Positions 3,102 to 58,339 of a stretch of DNA of 64,000 nucleotides are shown here, piece by piece. The stretch spans positions 11,730-75,729 of the forward strand of contig CAZEWH010000001.1 of assembly GCA_964515785.1 (NCBI GenBank), written 5' to 3'. Under the pieces are notes generated by a model. That model was not told the origin of the DNA. It saw nothing but the letters and a program-made list of their open reading frames with translations, and made no database searches. The position numbers and the translations under genes are program-made. The stretch comes from an uncultured Gammaproteobacteria bacterium (GTDB lineage: Bacteria; Patescibacteriota; Patescibacteriia; UBA1558; GWA2-36-10). Within the stretch, counting starts at the first letter, position 1, and each line of letters begins with the position of its first letter.

Positions 3102-3107
3102 GTTCTA

Positions 3108-3136
3108 TTGACAAAATAGTTTATATATGCTATACT
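3108..3136 (+). promoter_or_regulatory. sigma70-type promoter TTGACA-N17-TATACT driving GC-rich two-gene cassette
   Basis: TTGACA at 3108-3113, 17-nt spacer, TATACT at 3131-3136, about 70 nt upstream of SD TAGGAGG. Confidence 0.6.
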
Positions 3137-3216
3137 TTTTCATTGTTTGAAAGTTCGTTGACTTCGAAATAAACTAAATCCACTAAATCTGTCACTCATG
3201 CTTTAGGAGGAACGTC

Positions 3217-3762
3217 GTGACCCGAAAAAAGAAATTGGGAGGGATTTTGGTTGCCATTGCTTTGGCGGCTATCTTGCTTCCCGGAGGATTTTTCCTCTGG
3301 CAAACTTGGTTTGTCTTTGATGGTGATGACATGGCTTGGGATGTTGGCCTGCTAGCTGATTCGCCTAATGACTTTGTTAGGATGGATAATCTGCTGCAGA
3401 ATTCAGTGTCTGCCATGGAAGAGCGTGATCTGACTACCGGTCCAGTCAGTCCTTACCTAGCCCATTTTGGTAGCATGGACGAATGCTATCAGACAGTGGT
3501 TGATCTGCAGGCTGAAGTCCATACTTGGGCTGAAGCTTATCCGGATTCTGCTGCAGCCAACAGCGAAGAAGTCCTGGCTCGTCAGGATGAAGTCGCAGCT
3601 CTGCGTACTCGTTTCAACAAGTTGCCTGATAGCCCGATCTACAATTACTACTTTTACAATCGCTATGCCTGGATGGGAGTGGTCATGCTAGGAGCTATGT
3701 ATTTCTTGATCCTGGGACTGATCTGGTACAACCGTCCGGAGGAGGCGAGTCATGTTTGTTAA
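3217..3762 (+). CDS. hypothetical membrane protein (N- and C-terminal TM helices), GC-rich, GTG start with strong SD
   Basis: 181 aa; SD TAGGAGG 6 nt upstream of GTG 3217; local GC about 50% vs about 34% background. Confidence 0.55.
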   Translation: MTRKKKLGGILVAIALAAILLPGGFFLWQTWFVFDGDDMAWDVGLLADSPNDFVRMDNLLQNSVSAMEERDLTTGPVSPYLAHFGSMDECYQTVVDLQAEVHTWAEAYPDSAAANSEEVLARQDEVAALRTRFNKLPDSPIYNYYFYNRYAWMGVVMLGAMYFLILGLIWYNRPEEASHVC

Positions 3763-4702
3763 GAACCCGACTGTCAAACGATCTGGCTGGCCTTATCGTT
3801 TCTGGAAGTGGACCTATCAGAATCGTTTCTGGAACAAGGACTTGCCCGAGCGTTTCTCGCTCTGTGCCTTTACCCAGCGCAGCATCTGGTTGGGATTTTT
3901 CCTACTGCCGCTGCTGTATGCCATCTACTTCTTGGTGGCTTGGTTTATTTACGACGTGCTTTATCGTCGGGTGGTCAGTCATATCACCAAGTACGCACCG
4001 CTGGCTGCTCTGCTGATTTGGCTGCCTCTGGTAGCTCTCAGTTTCTGGGGAGGTATGTCTGAAACAGCAATTGTCTTGGTCATTCTGACAGGCATTCTTT
4101 TGGGTATCCTAGTGGCGGCCGTTGTGATCATGGTGGCATGTTACTTACTGTGGGAGTTGATTAAAAAGGTCTTTACCTTCAACACTCAAGTGCATAGCTA
4201 CCACTATGTGCCTAGTAGTGAGTATCGTCGGCCGCTGGATCGCTACGACTTCAACCACGACACTGATCAAGGACTTGTCCATACCTTGTTCTGGATGCAG
4301 CCTCTCATCTGGCTCGGCATCTTTGCTCTGCTGGGAGGTTTTGGCGGAGGACACTATATCTCTAACCAGACCTTTGATCCGGTGTTGGCCAAGAAGTTCA
4401 TGCTTGGCTATGGCATTTTCTTCGTTGCTTACTACATCGGTGCCACCTTTTTCCTTTGGCGACACTGGAAGAAGGAAGTCAGGATCGAGCGGGGAGAAAT
4501 CGAGCGTCATCCGGAAAAACCGTCCAAGCCCAAGAAAGTGCGCAAGCACAAGGGCTGGTTTGGCCGCTGGTGGCTGGGTACTGTTTGGCCTGGCCGGTTT
4601 GGTAACCTCTTCCGTAACATCGGCGAGTTCCTCTGTCTGCTATGGGATGGCCTCAAGGCCCTCAAGCATCAGGTCTGCCCGATCATGGAAGTAGTGGAAT
4701 AG
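3752..4702 (+). CDS. hypothetical polytopic membrane protein with basic C-terminal tail, GC-rich, overlaps upstream gene by 11 nt, SD GAGGAGG
   Basis: 316 aa; several hydrophobic helices; RBS GAGGAGGCGAGTCATG inside the upstream ORF end. Confidence 0.55.
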   Translation: MFVKNPTVKRSGWPYRFWKWTYQNRFWNKDLPERFSLCAFTQRSIWLGFFLLPLLYAIYFLVAWFIYDVLYRRVVSHITKYAPLAALLIWLPLVALSFWGGMSETAIVLVILTGILLGILVAAVVIMVACYLLWELIKKVFTFNTQVHSYHYVPSSEYRRPLDRYDFNHDTDQGLVHTLFWMQPLIWLGIFALLGGFGGGHYISNQTFDPVLAKKFMLGYGIFFVAYYIGATFFLWRHWKKEVRIERGEIERHPEKPSKPKKVRKHKGWFGRWWLGTVWPGRFGNLFRNIGEFLCLLWDGLKALKHQVCPIMEVVE

Positions 4703-4710
4703 TATTTCAA

Positions 4711-4742
4711 CTGGCGTGTACACTATGCACGCCAGTTTTTTA
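4711..4742 (+). terminator. intrinsic terminator (CTGGCGTG..CACGCCAG + TTTTTT)
   Basis: 8-bp GC stem, 9-nt loop, T6. Confidence 0.75.
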
Positions 4743-4759
4743 TTTATCCACAGATTTGT

Positions 4760-4788
4760 TTGACAATATTTTTATTAGCTGTTAATAT
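4760..4788 (+). promoter_or_regulatory. consensus promoter TTGACA-N17-TAATAT of an orphan small transcription unit
   Basis: TTGACA 4760-4765, 17-nt spacer, TAATAT 4783-4788; no protein gene downstream before terminator. Confidence 0.5.
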
Positions 4789-4795
4789 ATACATA

Positions 4796-4936
4796 TCATC
4801 GTTCTTCAAAGATGTAAGCAATTCACCGCCAGAGACGTCTCTCTATCACCCGGATCTTGGTCTAGACAGACTCTCAATCAATGCTTACAACTTTTACCCA
4901 CAGGACTCTACTTCGGTAGAGTCCTTTCTTTTATTT
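4796..4936 (+). ncRNA. candidate ~135-nt small RNA ending in terminator hairpin GGACTCTACTTCGGTAGAGTCC + T-run
   Basis: promoter at 4760-4788; internal palindromes GAGACGTCTC and GTCTAGAC; terminator hairpin 4903-4924 is near-identical to the one ending cassette U3 at 18063-18084 (minus strand); no SD-preceded ORF. Confidence 0.35.
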
Positions 4937-5016
4937 AACCCCCTAAATCCCCCTTGTCAGGGGGACTTTTTTGTTTAAATAATTCCTCCCCTGACAAGGG
5001 GAGGTTAGGAGGGGTT
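4937..5016. repeat. 80-bp GC-rich palindromic intergenic element, copy 1 (AACCCCCTAAATCCCCCTTGTCAGGGGGAC ... TCCTCCCCTGACAAGGGGAGGTTAGGAGGGGTT)
   Basis: two internal hairpins (C5-TTGTCA-G5 and CCTCCCC-TGACAA-GGGGAGG) whose loops are reverse complements; outer arms AACCCCC/GGGGTT; second copy at 10999-11092. Confidence 0.8.
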
Positions 5017-5029
5017 AATCCTTACCATA

Positions 5030-5047
5030 AAGTAATTATAATTACTT
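5030..5047. promoter_or_regulatory. perfect 18-bp palindrome AAGTAATTATAATTACTT upstream of MerR-like gene (candidate operator)
   Basis: exact dyad 36 nt upstream of the 5083 start, overlapping the likely promoter region. Confidence 0.4.
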
Positions 5048-5082
5048 TACACTTTTTACTTTATGGTTTATAATATATATAC

Positions 5083-5322
5083 ATGCCAAAACAGGGGACA
5101 GACACAAAATTGATAAAGATTGGTCAGCTAGCCAAGCTGTTTTCTGTTTTACCTTCTACGATCAATTTTTATACTAGAGAAGGTTTACTTCCTGAAGATA
5201 ATCGCTCTCAAGGCGGTTATCGTCTTTATGATAAAAATAAAGCTATCAAAATATTAAATAAAATAAATTATTTACAAAATAAGAAAAGATTAACTATAGA
5301 AGAGATTAAAAACTTGCTATAG
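5083..5322 (+). CDS. small MerR-family HTH transcriptional regulator
   Basis: 79 aa; N-terminal MerR-type HTH (IGQLAKLFSVLPSTINFYTREGLL..GYRLYD). Confidence 0.6.
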   Translation: MPKQGTDTKLIKIGQLAKLFSVLPSTINFYTREGLLPEDNRSQGGYRLYDKNKAIKILNKINYLQNKKRLTIEEIKNLL

Positions 5323-10999: not shown

Positions 11000-11092
11000 A
11001 CCCCCTAAATCCCCCTTGTCAGGGGGACTTGATGGATATAGAATATGTTAGTTAATTAGTTCCTCCCCTGACAAGGGGAGGTCAGGAGGGGT
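10999..11092. repeat. GC-rich palindromic intergenic element, copy 2 (same arms as 4937-5016 with longer central spacer)
   Basis: AACCCCCTAAATCCCCCTTGTCAGGGGGAC ... TCCTCCCCTGACAAGGGGAGGTCAGGAGGGGTT; arms nearly identical to copy 1. Confidence 0.8.
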
Positions 11093-11103
11093 TAAAAAGA
11101 ATA

Positions 11104-17689: not shown

Positions 17690-17744
17690 AATTATCTCCT
17701 TGAAAATGATGCATTTTAGTGAAAGAGCTTATTAAAACAATTGT

Positions 17745-17774
17745 ATTAAAGCATTTAATATGTTTTTTTGTCAA
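17745..17774 (-). promoter_or_regulatory. promoter TTGACA-N18-TTTAAT for excisionase-family gene
   Basis: minus-strand TTGACA (plus 17769-17774), TTTAAT (plus 17745-17750). Confidence 0.5.
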
Positions 17775-17794
17775 CCTGCCTGCCGGTAAGCAGG

Positions 17795-17926
17795 AAATAA
17801 AAAGGGCCCCGTCGAGATGATCTCGACGGGGCTTCAGCACCCCTGCTGCACCAGCTTGCTTTACCTTCTTGCGGAGGCGTAAAGGCTGGTATTTTTATTT
17901 TAGCAGTTATTTTGATTTTTTGTCAA
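17795..17926 (-). ncRNA. mini-cassette U1: promoter TTGACA-N18-TAAAAT, ~95-nt GC-rich structured RNA, perfect terminator (GCCCCGTCGAGA-TCA-TCTCGACGGGGC + U-run)
   Basis: minus-strand -35 at plus 17921-17926, -10 at 17897-17902; 5' hairpin ACCAGCCUUUAC..GUAAAGCAAGCUGGU; terminator stem plus 17806-17832, A-run 17795-17803. Confidence 0.4.
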
Positions 17927-18042
17927 AAGAAAAAGGGGACCTCACTAGAGATCCCCCGAGAAACGAAGTAGTCGTCTTCATATTGCCAATCGGAGTTTCC
18001 GATTAGCATATTTATTGTATTATTTATATAAAAAGTAGTCAA
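17927..18042 (-). ncRNA. mini-cassette U2: promoter TTGACT-N17-TACAAT, ~80-nt structured RNA, terminator GGGGAUCUCUAGUGAGGUCCCC + U-run
   Basis: -35 at plus 18037-18042, -10 at 18014-18019; 5' hairpin AAUCGGA-AAC-UCCGAUU; terminator plus 17935-17956. Confidence 0.4.
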
Positions 18043-18055
18043 GAATTTAAGATAA

Positions 18056-18227
18056 AGAAAAAGGGCTCTACCGAAGTAGAGCCCCTGTCGAAAGCGGCCA
18101 TACAGGCCCCTCGTACCTGCGGTCTCGCAGAGTCATCCTGTTACCTCCTGCTGGAGGTGCGCCGTGTCGGTTCGCTGTGTACAGCGAACGCAATATTAAT
18201 TGTATAGATAATTTAGTGTTTTGTCAA
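18056..18227 (-). ncRNA. mini-cassette U3: promoter TTGACA-N17-TACAAT, ~135-nt structured RNA with four perfect hairpins, terminator GGGCUCUACUUCGGUAGAGCCC + U-run; contains SD-preceded 22-codon ORF
   Basis: -35 at plus 18222-18227, -10 at 18199-18204; hairpins GUUCGCUGU/ACAGCGAAC, CCUCC/GGAGG, CUGCG/CGCAG; AGGAGGU-N6-AUG (ATG at 18136, stop 18068) encodes MTLRDRRYEGPVWPLSTGALLR; SD lies inside the CCUCC/GGAGG hairpin. Confidence 0.4.
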
Positions 18228-18250
18228 TTCTGCCTTTGGATGGGACAAGC

Positions 18251-18279
18251 TTGATAAATACCTTGATTTTAGCTATAAT
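18251..18279 (+). promoter_or_regulatory. promoter TTGATA-N17-TATAAT for glyQS
   Basis: TTGATA 18251-18256, TATAAT 18274-18279, about 38 nt upstream of ATG. Confidence 0.6.
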
Positions 18280-18316
18280 TTGTGTGTTAATAAGTATATA
18301 AATTTATTATTTTTTT

Positions 18317-19699
18317 ATGGAAAACGCACGGAAATTTGACAAGGTGGTAAATCTGGCAAAAACAAGAGGTTTTGTCTACCCATCTTCAGATATTTATGGA
18401 GGACTGAATTCTATTTATGATTATGGCCCACTAGGAGTTGAGCTAAAAAACAACATCAAGCAAGCTTGGTGGGATTTTATGTTGGCTCGCAAAGATGTAG
18501 TTGGGCTTGATTCAGCTATTTTGGCGCATCCCAAAATCTGGGAAGCTTCTGGGCATCTAGAGGGTTTTACTGATCCACTAGTAGATTGCAAAAAATGTAA
18601 AGCTAGATTTAGGGCTGATAATCTTCTTGAAAAAAAAGGTATCAAACCTGAATTTGTCCAAGGCAAGCCACAGAATATGAATGATATAAAATGTCCAGAT
18701 TGTGGCGGTGAGTTGACTGACGTTCGTCAGTTCAACCTTATGTTCAAGACTTTTATGGGAGCTTTGGAAGATCAGGCTAGTCAGATCTATATGCGACCTG
18801 AAACTGCTCAAGGTATTTATGTCAATTTTTTGCATGTCAAAGACAGCATGCGCATGAAGATGCCTTTTGGTGTTGCCCAGATTGGTAAAGCTTTTCGTAA
18901 TGAGATCACGCCAGGTAATTTTATTTTCCGTATGCGTGAATTTGAGCAAATGGAAATGCAATATTTTGTCAAAGCAACTGATACTCAAAAAGTTTTTGAT
19001 ACTTGGCAAAAATTACGTATGGACTGGTATTTGTCTTTAGGTATTGATAAAAATAATATTAGATTTCGTGATCATGCCAAAGATGAATTAGCTCATTATG
19101 CTAAACAAGCTATAGATATTGAATATAAGTTTGAATTTACTCCTAATGAAGATTTCAAAGAACTAGAAGGCATCCATGATCGGGGTAATTGGGATCTATC
19201 TCGTCACCAAGAATTTTCCGGACAAAAGATGTCTGTCAAAGACGAAGCAGAGTATATTCCCAATATAATAGAAACTTCAGGTGGAGTTGATCGAGCTATG
19301 TTTGCTTTTTTGATGGATGCTTATGATGAAGTAGATACTCGTAGTGGTGACAAAGATGCCAAGCATAGTACTGAAGTAGTTCTTAGACTTCATCCTAAAT
19401 TGGCGCCTATTAAAATAGCGATCTTGCCATTATCTAAGAAACCTGACTTAGCCAAAAAGACTCAAGGAGTCTATGATATGCTTGTCAATAAATATCGTAT
19501 TCAATATGATGAGACTGGTAGCATTGGTAAACGTTATCGTCGCCAAGATGAGATTGGTACGCCATATTGTATTACTATTGACTTTGATAGTTTGGAAGAT
19601 GATCAAGTGACTATTCGTGATCGCGATACTATGAAGCAAGAGCGAATTGCTATCAAGGATTTAGAAAATTATTTTGTTGATAAATTTTCACCCTGTTAA
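18317..19699 (+). CDS. glyQS: glycyl-tRNA synthetase (dimeric class II GlyRS)
   Basis: 460 aa; class II motifs; zinc-knuckle CKKCKARF..CPDCGGEL; anticodon-binding domain. Confidence 0.95.
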   Translation: MENARKFDKVVNLAKTRGFVYPSSDIYGGLNSIYDYGPLGVELKNNIKQAWWDFMLARKDVVGLDSAILAHPKIWEASGHLEGFTDPLVDCKKCKARFRADNLLEKKGIKPEFVQGKPQNMNDIKCPDCGGELTDVRQFNLMFKTFMGALEDQASQIYMRPETAQGIYVNFLHVKDSMRMKMPFGVAQIGKAFRNEITPGNFIFRMREFEQMEMQYFVKATDTQKVFDTWQKLRMDWYLSLGIDKNNIRFRDHAKDELAHYAKQAIDIEYKFEFTPNEDFKELEGIHDRGNWDLSRHQEFSGQKMSVKDEAEYIPNIIETSGGVDRAMFAFLMDAYDEVDTRSGDKDAKHSTEVVLRLHPKLAPIKIAILPLSKKPDLAKKTQGVYDMLVNKYRIQYDETGSIGKRYRRQDEIGTPYCITIDFDSLEDDQVTIRDRDTMKQERIAIKDLENYFVDKFSPC

Positions 19700-55578: not shown

Positions 55579-55773
55579 ATGTCAGATATGCCAGAGCATG
55601 ATGACAGCTTTGTCCGCGAAGATACACTTGGTTGGACAGGTAATCATCATGATGAAATCGGCCTCAAAGACAGTGGCCAGTATCAAGCAATTACTGGCCA
55701 AGAAGATCACAGTTTCAGTGATGTTTCTTGGTCTGGTGATAGTGTGACTGGAGATGCTATCTTTCCTGGCTGA
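55579..55773 (+). CDS. hypothetical acidic small protein, GC-rich, SD AAAGGAGGTGA
   Basis: 64 aa; D/E/H-rich, low complexity. Confidence 0.4.
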   Translation: MSDMPEHDDSFVREDTLGWTGNHHDEIGLKDSGQYQAITGQEDHSFSDVSWSGDSVTGDAIFPG

Positions 55774-55784
55774 TCTAGCCTCGC

Positions 55785-55820
55785 TTTGTATTTTTACAAG
55801 GCGAGGCTATCTAAAAATTA
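55785..55820 (+). terminator. hairpin TAGCCTCGC..GCGAGGCTA after GC-rich module
   Basis: 9-bp stem, 16-nt loop. Confidence 0.45.
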
Positions 55821-55879
55821 ATTATTTGATATATATTTTAGCTTATGTTAAGTTAAAGCTAATTATTAAGAACAAACAT

Positions 55880-57370
55880 ATGAATTTAGTATTACAAGCA
55901 AAAATTGAACAAATGCCACAGGTGATGTTTTATCCTGTTTTGGAGGACAATCAAGCTATTATTAGATTGATTAATAGTTTTGACTATGAAGATCAATCAG
56001 CTATTTTGACTCGTCTTAAAGCTGAAAAATTTGTAGGAAAAAAATCACAGGTTTTTATTATAAATGAACCTGGTTTATCAGTAGTTTTACTAGGTACTGG
56101 TCAAAGTAAAAAATTAAACTCAGAAGATTGGAGAATTTTAGCTGGAAATATTATAGCTTATCTTCAAAAATATTCAGCTAAAAATATTGGCCTTATAGCT
56201 CAAGACTGGCTGAAAAATAATTCTAATGTAGAATTATTTGGTCAATCTTTAGCCGAAGGCTTGATGCTAGCAAGTTATGAATTTATTAAGTACAAAAAAA
56301 TAGACAAAAATAAAATAAATATAAATATTGAAAATATTTTTGTAGAAATTTCTTCAGATAAAAAAAATAAATTTCAAAAAGGCTGGGATACTGGTTTATT
56401 GATGACTGAGGCAACTAATCTAGCTCGTGATCTAGTCAATGAACCAGCTGGCGTGATGACGCCGACTTTTTTGGCAGATACAGCTCGTCAGATTGCCAAA
56501 GACAATAAAAATATCTCTGTAAAAATATTAGACAAAGAAGCTTGTCAAAAATTAGGTATGAATGCATATCTTGGAGTTGACCAAGGTTCAGAACAGCCTT
56601 TGCAGTTTATACATCTTGTATACAAACCAGCTCGCAAATCAAAAGATATTATTGCTTTGGTGGGCAAGGGTATTACTTTTGATAGTGGAGGACTCAACAT
56701 CAAGACAGGCGATAGTATGTCTCAAATGAAAGTTGATATGGCGGGAGCAGCGACCGTCTTAGGTATTTTTGCTAGTATTGGAAAACTGAAACCAAAGTCA
56801 GAAGTCCATGGTATTGTAGCTGCTTGTGAAAACATGCCATCTGGTACAGCCCTCAAACCTGGAGATGTTATTTCTAATATGCAGGGTAAGACTATTGAAA
56901 TAGGTAATACTGATGCTGAAGGTCGAGTGACTCTAGCTGACTCTCTGGCTTATGCTCAAAAAAAAGGCGCCAAAACTATCATAGACTTAGCTACTTTGAC
57001 TGGAGCTTGTATGATTGCTCTAGGACCAGAATATACTGCTTTGTTTGCCAATGATCAAAGTTTAGCTAAAGATTTATTAAAAACTGCAGATCAAACTGGC
57101 GAGAAAATATGGCAATTGCCTTTACCAGATGAATATAAAGAACTCAATAAAAGCAAGATAGCTGATATAAATAATATACCAAACACTAGATATGGCGGAG
57201 CTATTACTGCAGCTTTGTTTTTGCAAGAATTTATAAATCAAGATATCAAATGGTCTCACTGGGATATAGCAGGACCTGCTTATGCTGAAAAACCGTTCAA
57301 TAGCTATATTCCTCAGGGAGGGGTTGGTTTTGGAGTAAGGACTTTACTTGCTTGGTTATTAGCTAAATAG
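55880..57370 (+). CDS. pepA: leucyl aminopeptidase (M17 family)
   Basis: start set at MNLVLQAK; NTDAEGRVTLAD signature and Zn ligands; ORF-track N-terminal 42 aa likely spurious. Confidence 0.9.
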   Translation: MNLVLQAKIEQMPQVMFYPVLEDNQAIIRLINSFDYEDQSAILTRLKAEKFVGKKSQVFIINEPGLSVVLLGTGQSKKLNSEDWRILAGNIIAYLQKYSAKNIGLIAQDWLKNNSNVELFGQSLAEGLMLASYEFIKYKKIDKNKININIENIFVEISSDKKNKFQKGWDTGLLMTEATNLARDLVNEPAGVMTPTFLADTARQIAKDNKNISVKILDKEACQKLGMNAYLGVDQGSEQPLQFIHLVYKPARKSKDIIALVGKGITFDSGGLNIKTGDSMSQMKVDMAGAATVLGIFASIGKLKPKSEVHGIVAACENMPSGTALKPGDVISNMQGKTIEIGNTDAEGRVTLADSLAYAQKKGAKTIIDLATLTGACMIALGPEYTALFANDQSLAKDLLKTADQTGEKIWQLPLPDEYKELNKSKIADINNIPNTRYGGAITAALFLQEFINQDIKWSHWDIAGPAYAEKPFNSYIPQGGVGFGVRTLLAWLLAK

Positions 57371-57374
57371 GCTA

Positions 57375-57538
57375 TTGACAGTATTTGAGGGAATTGCTAT
57401 GCTATAAGCAGTTCTTTCATGCAGTCGTCATTCCAAACCATCTACTGGGTTTTTTGCTCCTGACCTGACCGCCTCCTTGACCGCGTTTGATTGCCATGAC
57501 GAGCCTCCGACCCTCGTAGCTTTGCTACGGGGGTTTTT
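57375..57538 (+). ncRNA. orphan cassette A: promoter TTGACA-N17-TATGCT, ~120-nt GC-rich structured RNA, terminator CCCTCGTAG-CTTTG-CTACGGGGG + T5
   Basis: located between convergent pepA and pth; contains CCUCCUU (anti-SD-like) and GTCGTCATTCC..GCCATGACGAGC inverted repeat; no credible ORF. Confidence 0.4.
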
Positions 57539-57554
57539 CTTATTTATCAAAGAC

Positions 57555-57700
57555 TTGACAGGATATTTGATTTGGTATAATATATATCCACGATCTTTCG
57601 ATGCCAGAAGAGCGATCTAACAAATGTCGGGAGCCCATTCCCACTCTCGTGTGCTGCGCTTTTCCGACGAGCCCTTGTTGCCTTGCAACAAGGGTTTTTT
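57555..57700 (+). ncRNA. orphan cassette B: promoter TTGACA-N17-TAATAT, ~105-nt GC-rich structured RNA, terminator CCCTTGTTGC-CTT-GCAACAAGGG + T6
   Basis: shares CGACGAGCC + terminator architecture with cassette A. Confidence 0.4.
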
Positions 57701-57755
57701 CTTTGTATACTAAAAATGTCCAGAGTGCGAAAAGCACCGGGGACACAACCTGAAT

Positions 57756-57784: not shown

Positions 57785-58339
57785 TTAATTATATTTATTA
57801 GAAGTGACTGTAAATCCTTTTTTGATAATAGATTCTAAAATCAAATGACTAGTGTCGATAATTTCAGCTAGTTTTTTCTTTTGTTCAGAATCAAATTTTT
57901 TAAGCACAAAACCTTCTGCATTACCTTTTTGAGTGCCAATACCAAGTCTAATACGGATAAAATCTTTTGATTTTAGATGTTTGATAGTTGATTCAACACC
58001 TTTATGACCACCAGCTGATTTTTTTCGGCTGATACGTATTTTGCCAAAAGGCAAATCTATATCATCATAAATAATAATTATTTTTGTGGTGGGTATTTTA
58101 TAAAAAGATTTTAGTTTTTTGACAGCTCTACCAGATTCATTCATATAAGTCAGTGGCTTGGCAATAATATTTTTTTCTCTATCAATCTTGAAGTCAGCCA
58201 AGGCACTATTACTGGCTTTATGTGATTTCCAGTTCAAGCTTTTTTTGTTAGCTAAAGAATCCAAAACCATCCAACCAAAGTTGTGGCGGGTCTTAGCATA
58301 TTTTTTGTCTGGATTTCCTAGTCCAATGATCAAACGCAT
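57785..58339 (-). CDS. pth: peptidyl-tRNA hydrolase
   Basis: 184 aa; MRLIIGLGNPDKKYAKTRHNFGW N-terminus with catalytic His. Confidence 0.92.
   Translation of the reverse strand: MRLIIGLGNPDKKYAKTRHNFGWMVLDSLANKKSLNWKSHKASNSALADFKIDREKNIIAKPLTYMNESGRAVKKLKSFYKIPTTKIIIIYDDIDLPFGKIRISRKKSAGGHKGVESTIKHLKSKDFIRIRLGIGTQKGNAEGFVLKKFDSEQKKKLAEIIDTSHLILESIIKKGFTVTSNKYN

Follow-up and report, generated by a model that had tools for sequence, protein, structure and literature searches.

The window, by which we mean the whole 64,000-nucleotide stretch of DNA analysed here, is chromosomal, AT-rich (~33% GC) and occupied by housekeeping genes, including those for DprA, IleRS, RecO, TGT, a ClpC-like protein and GlyRS. 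Identical copies of its proteins are present on metagenome contigs, and the MerR-like protein encoded beside the unit described below has its nearest named homologues in Parcubacteria, Komeilibacteria and other Patescibacteria; the window is a piece of the chromosome of an AT-rich Patescibacteria/Parcubacteria-like bacterium. A Shine-Dalgarno (SD)-like motif (GGAG, GAGG or AGGA, up to 20 nt 5' of the start codon) precedes 10 of the 58 ORFs in the window, and translation of most genes of this organism seems to begin without such an element.

Between an overlapping pair of GC-rich genes and the MerR-like gene, a promoter, a structured predicted RNA and an intrinsic terminator form a compact intergenic unit, here called unit A (Table 1). 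The gene pair has no Pfam match and a single weak PHROG match (membrane protein), and it is missing from the related loci L027, L030 and L031. Comparison of these loci points to a later, strain-specific insertion 5' of an already existing unit A, because in L027 and L030 the same site is occupied by unit A while genes 3217-4702 are missing. Unit A would be older than the insertion and its adjacency to the GC-rich genes therefore coincidental, so that, for unit A, the link with GC-rich, SD-dependent foreign genes proposed in an earlier reading of the sequence alone (the sequence-only reading) falls away.

The MerR-like gene on the other side is widely conserved in Patescibacteria and, with its -10 hexamer at 5069-5074 and its ATG at 5083, looks to be transcribed into a leaderless mRNA. 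An inverted repeat, CCATAAAGTA...TACTTTATGG (5025-5085, plus strand), extends across its promoter, possibly as an operator for autoregulation. The interval between unit A and this promoter also holds one of two copies (4938-5015 and 11000-11093) of a MITE-like palindromic element; its arms, ~30 nt long (ACCCCCTAAATCCCCCTTGTCAGGGGGAC ... CCTCCCCTGACAAGGGGAGGTYAGGAGGGGTT), each form a small hairpin and enclose a variable centre, and the copy adjoining unit A is present in L027 and absent from L030.

Table 1. Positions of unit A, its neighbours and the other orphan cassettes in the window
Feature	Position	Strand	Remarks
Inserted cassette	~3102-4743	+	~1.64 kb; own promoter 3108-3136, own terminator 4709-4737
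GC-rich gene pair	3217-3762 and 3752-4702	+	Overlapping; 45-50% GC; gene 3217 has a GTG start after AGGAGGAACG
Perfect DnaA-box consensus TTATCCACA	4744-4752	+	7 nt upstream of the unit A -35 hexamer
ORF	4760-4978	+	72 codons, overlaps unit A; its TTG start codon opens the -35 hexamer
Unit A, predicted transcript	4795-4934	+	~135-140 nt; 5' end placed from the -10 hexamer, 3' end from the U-tract
Unit A, leader motif GUUCUUC	4801-4807	+	In unpaired 5' leader; candidate base-pairing seed
Unit A, central hairpin (body)	4808-4894	+	Predicted; long, irregular, ~87 nt
Unit A, intrinsic terminator	4902-4937	+	10-bp stem AGGACUCUAC-UUCG-GUAGAGUCCU, then U-rich tail
MerR-like gene	5083-5322	+	79 aa; own 11/12 promoter 5046-5074
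Cassette U3	18227-18054	-	Promoter 18227-18199, RNA ~18192-18054 (~135 nt), terminator 18086-18061
Cassette U2	Promoter 18042-18014, terminator 17957-17934	-	Downstream of U3
Cassette U1	Promoter 17926-17897, terminator 17832-17806	-	Downstream of U2
pepA	55754-57370		Flanks C4/C5
Cassette C4	Promoter 57375-57403, RNA ~57410-57542	+	Between pepA and pth
Cassette C5	Promoter 57555-57583, RNA ~57590-57705	+	Between pepA and pth
pth	57785-58339	-	Flanks C4/C5

Promoter, predicted RNA and terminator of unit A

The promoter that the sequence-only reading had placed at the head of the unit is present on the plus strand, with TTGACA at 4760-4765, a 17-nt spacer and TAATAT at 4783-4788, and a TG at 4780-4781 adds an extended -10 element (TGnTAATAT). 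This predicted sigma-70-type promoter scores 10/12 against the consensus, plus the TG extension, and is kept in two relatives. A lone promoter-like site means little in such AT-rich DNA, which yielded 117 of them where 76 per 20 kb were expected; what goes beyond chance in unit A is the combination of the promoter with a terminator, an intergenic place and conservation in relatives.

At the other end of the unit, a terminator scan scored a 10-bp stem (4902-4925) as a terminator. The hairpin GGACTCTACTTCGGTAGAGTCC at 4903-4924 is followed by TTTCTTTTATTT, the hairpin and U-run that had been proposed to close the transcript, and this G+C-rich hairpin lies directly 5' of the U-tract, as is typical of intrinsic terminators; in L030 and L027 the T-runs are uninterrupted. 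The predicted RNA between promoter and terminator has a minimum free energy of -39.5 kcal/mol (z = -5.5 versus shuffles) and folds into an unpaired leader of 12-13 nt, a long irregular hairpin, a short spacer and the terminator, a plan that is the same in the versions from the window, L030 and L027. Two short perfect palindromes singled out earlier, GAGACGTCTC (4832-4841) and GTCTAGAC (4860-4867), are there; they are incidental as DNA palindromes because their halves pair with other segments in the predicted fold, and the counterpart of the former in L030, GAGACGTTTC, has lost the palindrome, so that they carry no separate significance.

The unit also stands apart from its neighbours. The preceding gene ends in its own terminator 5' of unit A (4709-4737 in the window; in L030 the own hairpin of a gene for a 180-aa protein), and one terminator separates unit A from the MerR promoter in all three lineages, with a second in the window (4948-4965). 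Because the preceding gene has a terminator and the MerR-like gene a promoter of its own, unit A would be neither a leader nor a 3' UTR. A role as leader or attenuator of the MerR-like gene was rejected on the same ground, as relatives that have no unit A keep the MerR promoter too. Bounded by a promoter and a terminator of its own, and overlapped by an ORF that is broken in the orthologues, unit A behaves like the independent, non-coding promoter-RNA-terminator orphan that it had been taken for.

Directly upstream lies the sole perfect DnaA box of the window, kept in position in L030 and L027, which may be a regulatory site that places unit A under the control of DnaA. Boxes with at most one mismatch occur in the window at chance level (22 versus 21.7 expected), and since we estimate from base composition that roughly 0.8 perfect boxes are expected by chance per 64 kb, one perfect box is about the chance expectation. 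An origin of replication, which a perfect box might bring to mind, was rejected: there is neither a cluster of boxes nor a switch in skew, and the cumulative GC skew climbs near-monotonically across the window with a small local dip only at the GC-rich insertion.

Conservation of unit A in related lineages

Syntenic loci of relatives were collected through homologues of the MerR-like protein. The slot formed by the 180-aa gene, unit A, the MerR-like gene and the IleRS gene is the same in L030 and L027-L029, whose MerR-like proteins are 92% and 95% identical to that of the window, respectively. Unit A is absent from three loci with MerR proteins 77-84% identical (L031, L033, L035), which have only ~115 nt in the slot, from L034, which has an unrelated spacer there, and from the loci of more distant MerR homologues (P0004, P0005, P0009, P0011). 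Its absence where the MerR protein is still 77-84% identical indicates that unit A is young or dispensable.

Between the window and L030, identity is 96% over the promoter and its upstream block and 86% over the RNA, against 60-76% at the third codon positions of five flanking genes (~68% overall), a divergence that is a rough neutral yardstick only. The two RNAs differ by 26 substitutions. Measured on the fold computed from the window alone, these break 2 of 37 pairs in L030 where random placement would break 8.2 (P about 0.002), and in the RNAalifold fold of the alignment there are three compensatory and four one-sided (G-U) changes and no broken pair. On these models the substitutions preserve the predicted fold, with covariation statistics that are thin at three sequence variants.

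The third variant, L027, has flanks 80-95% identical to the window and keeps the promoter hexamers as TTGACG and TATTAT. Its body is unalignable with the window version; neither local alignment nor a covariance model picks up more than the terminator, and the global identity of ~60%, compared with 62-80% at third positions, is near what unrelated sequence gives in a gapped alignment. As this body is unalignable while promoter, leader and terminator are kept, it would either have been replaced or be unconstrained in sequence and free to drift. The motif GUUCUUC shows no change in any of the three lineages, the one with the differing body included, and its predicted probability of being unpaired is 0.86-0.97 in the three versions versus 0.42-0.44 for the whole RNA; it is thus a conserved and accessible candidate seed across the three sequences. 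The terminator likewise keeps its CUCUAC/GUAGAG core in L030 and L027, with outer pairs that covary (GGA/UCC and GAG/CUC) and, in L027, a CCU loop instead of UUCG.

A terminator hairpin shared with cassette U3

The sequence-only reading had noted that the same hairpin, preceded by ACAGG, terminates a second cassette, U3, on the opposite strand. This copy, GGGCTCTACTTCGGTAGAGCCC, lies at 18084-18063 on the minus strand, ACAGG precedes both copies, and the two differences between them are both compensatory. The 22-nt hairpin GGRCTCTACTTCGGTAGAGYCC has exactly two matches in the 64 kb with up to three mismatches and none in any of 100 shuffles, which excludes chance, and the stretch that is near-identical in the two units reads ACAGG(R)CUCUACUUCGGUAGAG(Y)CCUUU. 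Six sequences from the two loci have an identical inner stem and covarying outer pairs.

The resemblance is limited to ~25-35 nt of terminator and tail. Pairwise alignment, shuffle-controlled local alignment and a covariance-model search all found no similarity between the bodies, and an alignment of the whole units was rejected, since only the terminator and the promoter hexamers align. A covariance model of unit A matches U3 over 49-50 nt at the 3' end only, and the model from the window and L030, run over 188 kb of sequence, returned nothing but terminator-level matches beyond the orthologues. The suggestion that the two loci form one family of small RNA genes accordingly holds for ~30 nt of terminator and fails for the bodies, which are unrelated. 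We take the two hairpins to be paralogues whose likeness reflects common descent of the 3' module only, by duplication or recombination; sharing it does not indicate a shared RNA function.

In other respects U3 is both like and unlike unit A. It too has a consensus promoter, a structured RNA of ~135 nt (well folded as predicted, z = -4.0) and a terminator, whereas it conserves the 3' 80 nt, near-invariant among relatives, and unit A conserves the 5' leader and varies in its body. The 5' end of U3 is a paired hairpin with a compensatory C-G to U-A change. Orthologues of U3, found through the hairpin scan, adjoin the GlyRS gene in three loci (L020, L022, L023). The cassette contains a 22-codon ORF (18136-18068, minus strand) with AGGAGG and ATG, MTLRDRRYEGPVWPLSTGALLR, which stops at the TAG in the loop region of the terminator; in relatives it shows a 1-nt indel near its end and a Tyr-to-Cys change, and a conserved hairpin pairs its GGAGG with CCUCC. 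Because of this pairing, the frame shift of its end and the conservation of all codon positions alike, the ORF is probably non-coding, with a micropeptide as the alternative.

Beyond the window, the 812-kb contig of a relative holds one exact copy of the hairpin, and that lineage probably has its own unit A with the CCU-loop variant. Scans for the hairpin in 596 Gb of genomes, JGI metagenomes and IMG/VR returned only unrelated terminators (of a 5S rRNA in an Armatimonadota MAG, and of Vibrio) and one phage family of 52% GC. A dispersed terminator or REP- or MITE-like repeat was consequently rejected: with two copies in 64 kb, one exact copy in 812 kb and few, unrelated matches in the collections, this is not a ubiquitous terminator repeat, the outcome that the sequence-only reading had named as its refutation. 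The core of U3 had no match in viral contigs. In the phage-like family (L021, L024-L026, L040-L042; ~52% GC), the identical hairpin GGGCTCTACTTCGGTAGAGCCC stands without a T-run between a gene ending in ...VEYDYE* and the AGGAGG box of the next gene, and this stable UUCG hairpin seems to occur there independently.

Other orphan cassettes in the window

At least six orphan promoter-RNA-terminator units lie in the window (unit A, U1, U2, U3, C4 and C5), none with an Rfam match. C4 and C5 are kept in L037-L039 with conserved promoter, 5' end and terminator and, in C4, a largely variable body; like unit A, they are orphan units with conserved ends, and they differ from it in their dissimilar bodies and in a terminator of another type, GACCCUCGUAGC-UUU-GCUACGGGGGU. 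They resemble each other in the terminator hairpin only, so that sRNA cassettes unrelated in all but a reused terminator module are not confined to unit A and U3 and seem, from these sequences, to recur in the lineage. C4 starts with GUUCUUU and C5 with GAUCUUU, both resembling the GUUCUUC of unit A, and the pattern of promoter plus leader motif, which was defined after seeing the data, has three matches versus 0.03 expected. The leader motif of C4 is not consistently unpaired in the predicted folds. C4 also carries CCUCC just 5' of its terminator, kept in all three lineages.

On the minus strand, a further TTGACA promoter and a gene for a 71-aa HTH_17 (excisionase-like) protein (17689-17474) follow 3' of U1. 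In L020 and L023, an unrelated unit of ~214 nt takes the place of U2, U1 is kept in its 5' half only, and an additional unit follows the HTH gene.

Known RNA families and candidate targets

Searched at the gathering threshold, Rfam had no match anywhere in the window; 6S, SRP, tmRNA and every other curated family were thereby rejected as identities for unit A. Permissive searches (E up to 10) gave sub-threshold matches only, the longest to IS102 with 23 bits versus a threshold of 46, and nothing credible in 4650-5150, in 17700-18350 or in 6900-8200 of L020. ARAGORN found no tRNA and no tmRNA in the window, and blastn-short against the collected loci found no antisense or duplicated source of the RNA bodies. 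A search of the literature on sRNAs in Patescibacteria and the candidate phyla radiation found no description of regulatory RNAs, and we know of no RNA chaperone or sRNA regulon in Patescibacteria.

The leader of unit A was compared with 58 translation-initiation regions, all from the window. The best duplex, -13.0 kcal/mol, was equalled by 46% of shuffled seeds, and the best match, to the AGGAGGAACG box of the inserted gene 3217, is no better than theirs; no base-pairing target beyond chance emerged among these 58 regions.

Discussion

We consider it somewhat better than an even chance that unit A is a genuine, independently transcribed sRNA gene of ~135-140 nt, confined to a narrow clade, which would act by base pairing through its 5' leader. 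A strong sigma-70-type promoter, possibly modulated through the conserved upstream DnaA box, would drive synthesis of an RNA that consists of the 12-13-nt unpaired, pyrimidine-rich leader with GUUCUUC, a long stabilising hairpin and the intrinsic terminator. The leader would pair in trans with purine-rich stretches of target mRNAs, as do 5'-seed sRNAs elsewhere, and the hairpin body would be mainly a scaffold, able to diverge or be replaced. Function as a base-pairing regulator through the leader is probable, and this mechanism is favoured because promoter, leader and terminator have been kept while the body was replaced or drifts; many base-pairing sRNAs keep these three parts while their bodies diverge. 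Among generally known examples, the enterobacterial 5'-seed sRNAs RybB, OmrA/OmrB and MicC are likewise stand-alone intergenic genes of ~80-140 nt in which the single-stranded 5' end and the terminator are most conserved and the middle diverges fast. Unit A differs from them in having no sequence or Rfam similarity, in its Patescibacterium host and in its single ~87-nt hairpin body. RsaE/RoxS of Firmicutes, known to pair with Shine-Dalgarno regions, also present an unpaired C/U-rich motif; that of unit A could likewise base-pair with ribosome-binding sites rich in purines, but it reads GUUCUUC where theirs has UCCC or CCCC, the RNAs are not homologous, and an SD-like box is found in only 10 of the 58 genes of the window.

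That the unit instead encodes a small protein, whether the 72-codon ORF or a shorter peptide ending in the hairpin such as MLTTFTHRTLLR, we regard as very improbable and rejected in view of the stop codons that the orthologues contain. The window does have an ORF, and U3 with its AGGAGG, ATG and 22 codons likewise ends at a TAG inside the shared hairpin. The long ORF, however, begins in the -35 hexamer and its frame contains stop codons in both L030 and L027, so that its earlier dismissal as a spurious entry of the ORF track was sound; the 12-codon ORF is preceded by no Shine-Dalgarno sequence, and the orthologues either lack it or have it out of frame. In U3 the end of the frame is displaced by the 1-nt indel, all codon positions of the 80-nt region are near-invariant, and CCUCC pairs with GGAGG. 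Unit A could also be a decaying relic or a selfish promoter-hairpin-terminator cassette, its RNA, if any, functionless and its conserved parts persisting as strong signals or through the recent divergence of the lineages. The narrow distribution, with absence from the next-closest relatives, the replaced or unconstrained body of L027 and the plastic surroundings (the 1.64-kb insertion upstream and, in the window and L027 but not L030, the palindromic, mobile-looking element downstream) would all suit such an origin. It is nevertheless an unlikely one in our judgement: the promoter and RNA of L030 are 96% and 86% identical against ~68% at third codon positions, substitutions avoid breaking pairs, and the leader motif is invariant in three lineages despite the differing body.

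A regulator of another kind, one that binds a protein or acts locally rather than by base pairing, seems to us not likely either, if marginally less doubtful than a relic. The terminator hairpin CUCUAC-UUCG-GUAGAG could bind a protein common to unit A and U3, a thought encouraged by the inner stem being identical, and the outer pairs covarying, across the six sequences of the two loci, although terminator stems are conserved for termination alone. Alternatively, DnaA-controlled transcription of unit A would modulate the downstream MerR-like promoter by interference or read-through. The perfect DnaA box conserved 7 nt upstream of the -35 hexamer fits this version, as does the placement of unit A and of the U1-U3 cluster each 5' of a same-strand gene for a small MerR-superfamily or HTH_17 protein, and the lack of a base-pairing target among the 58 regions of the window would agree with either version. 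Against local action, the MerR promoter and its operator-like inverted repeat are also found at orthologues that have no unit A beside them, one or two terminators stand between unit A and the MerR promoter, and the DnaA box is single, without a cluster, and close to chance expectation.

A broader reading, which we hold to be quite improbable, would make unit A, C4, C5 and U1-U3 modular sRNA cassettes specific to Patescibacteria that damp translation of SD-dependent, often horizontally acquired genes, each assembled from a constant consensus promoter, a short, pyrimidine-rich anti-SD-like element (GUUCUUC, GUUCUUU, or the CCUCC of U3, U1 and C4), a reusable terminator and a swappable body. If it were true, the inserted genes 3217-4702 would be examples of targets in a mostly SD-less genome.

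On the sequences compared here, unit A is most likely a gene for a small non-coding RNA, specific to its lineage, credible yet of an ordinary kind. The six units of the window, if real, would form a starting catalogue of sRNA genes for the reduced, mostly episymbiotic Patescibacteria, and also a clean case of sRNA evolution in which the promoter, 5' leader and terminator of a gene persist, its body gives way to another, and one terminator module comes to serve several genes. As a candidate sRNA of narrow distribution, unit A matters mainly as a way into the sRNA repertoire of these bacteria, so far unexplored.
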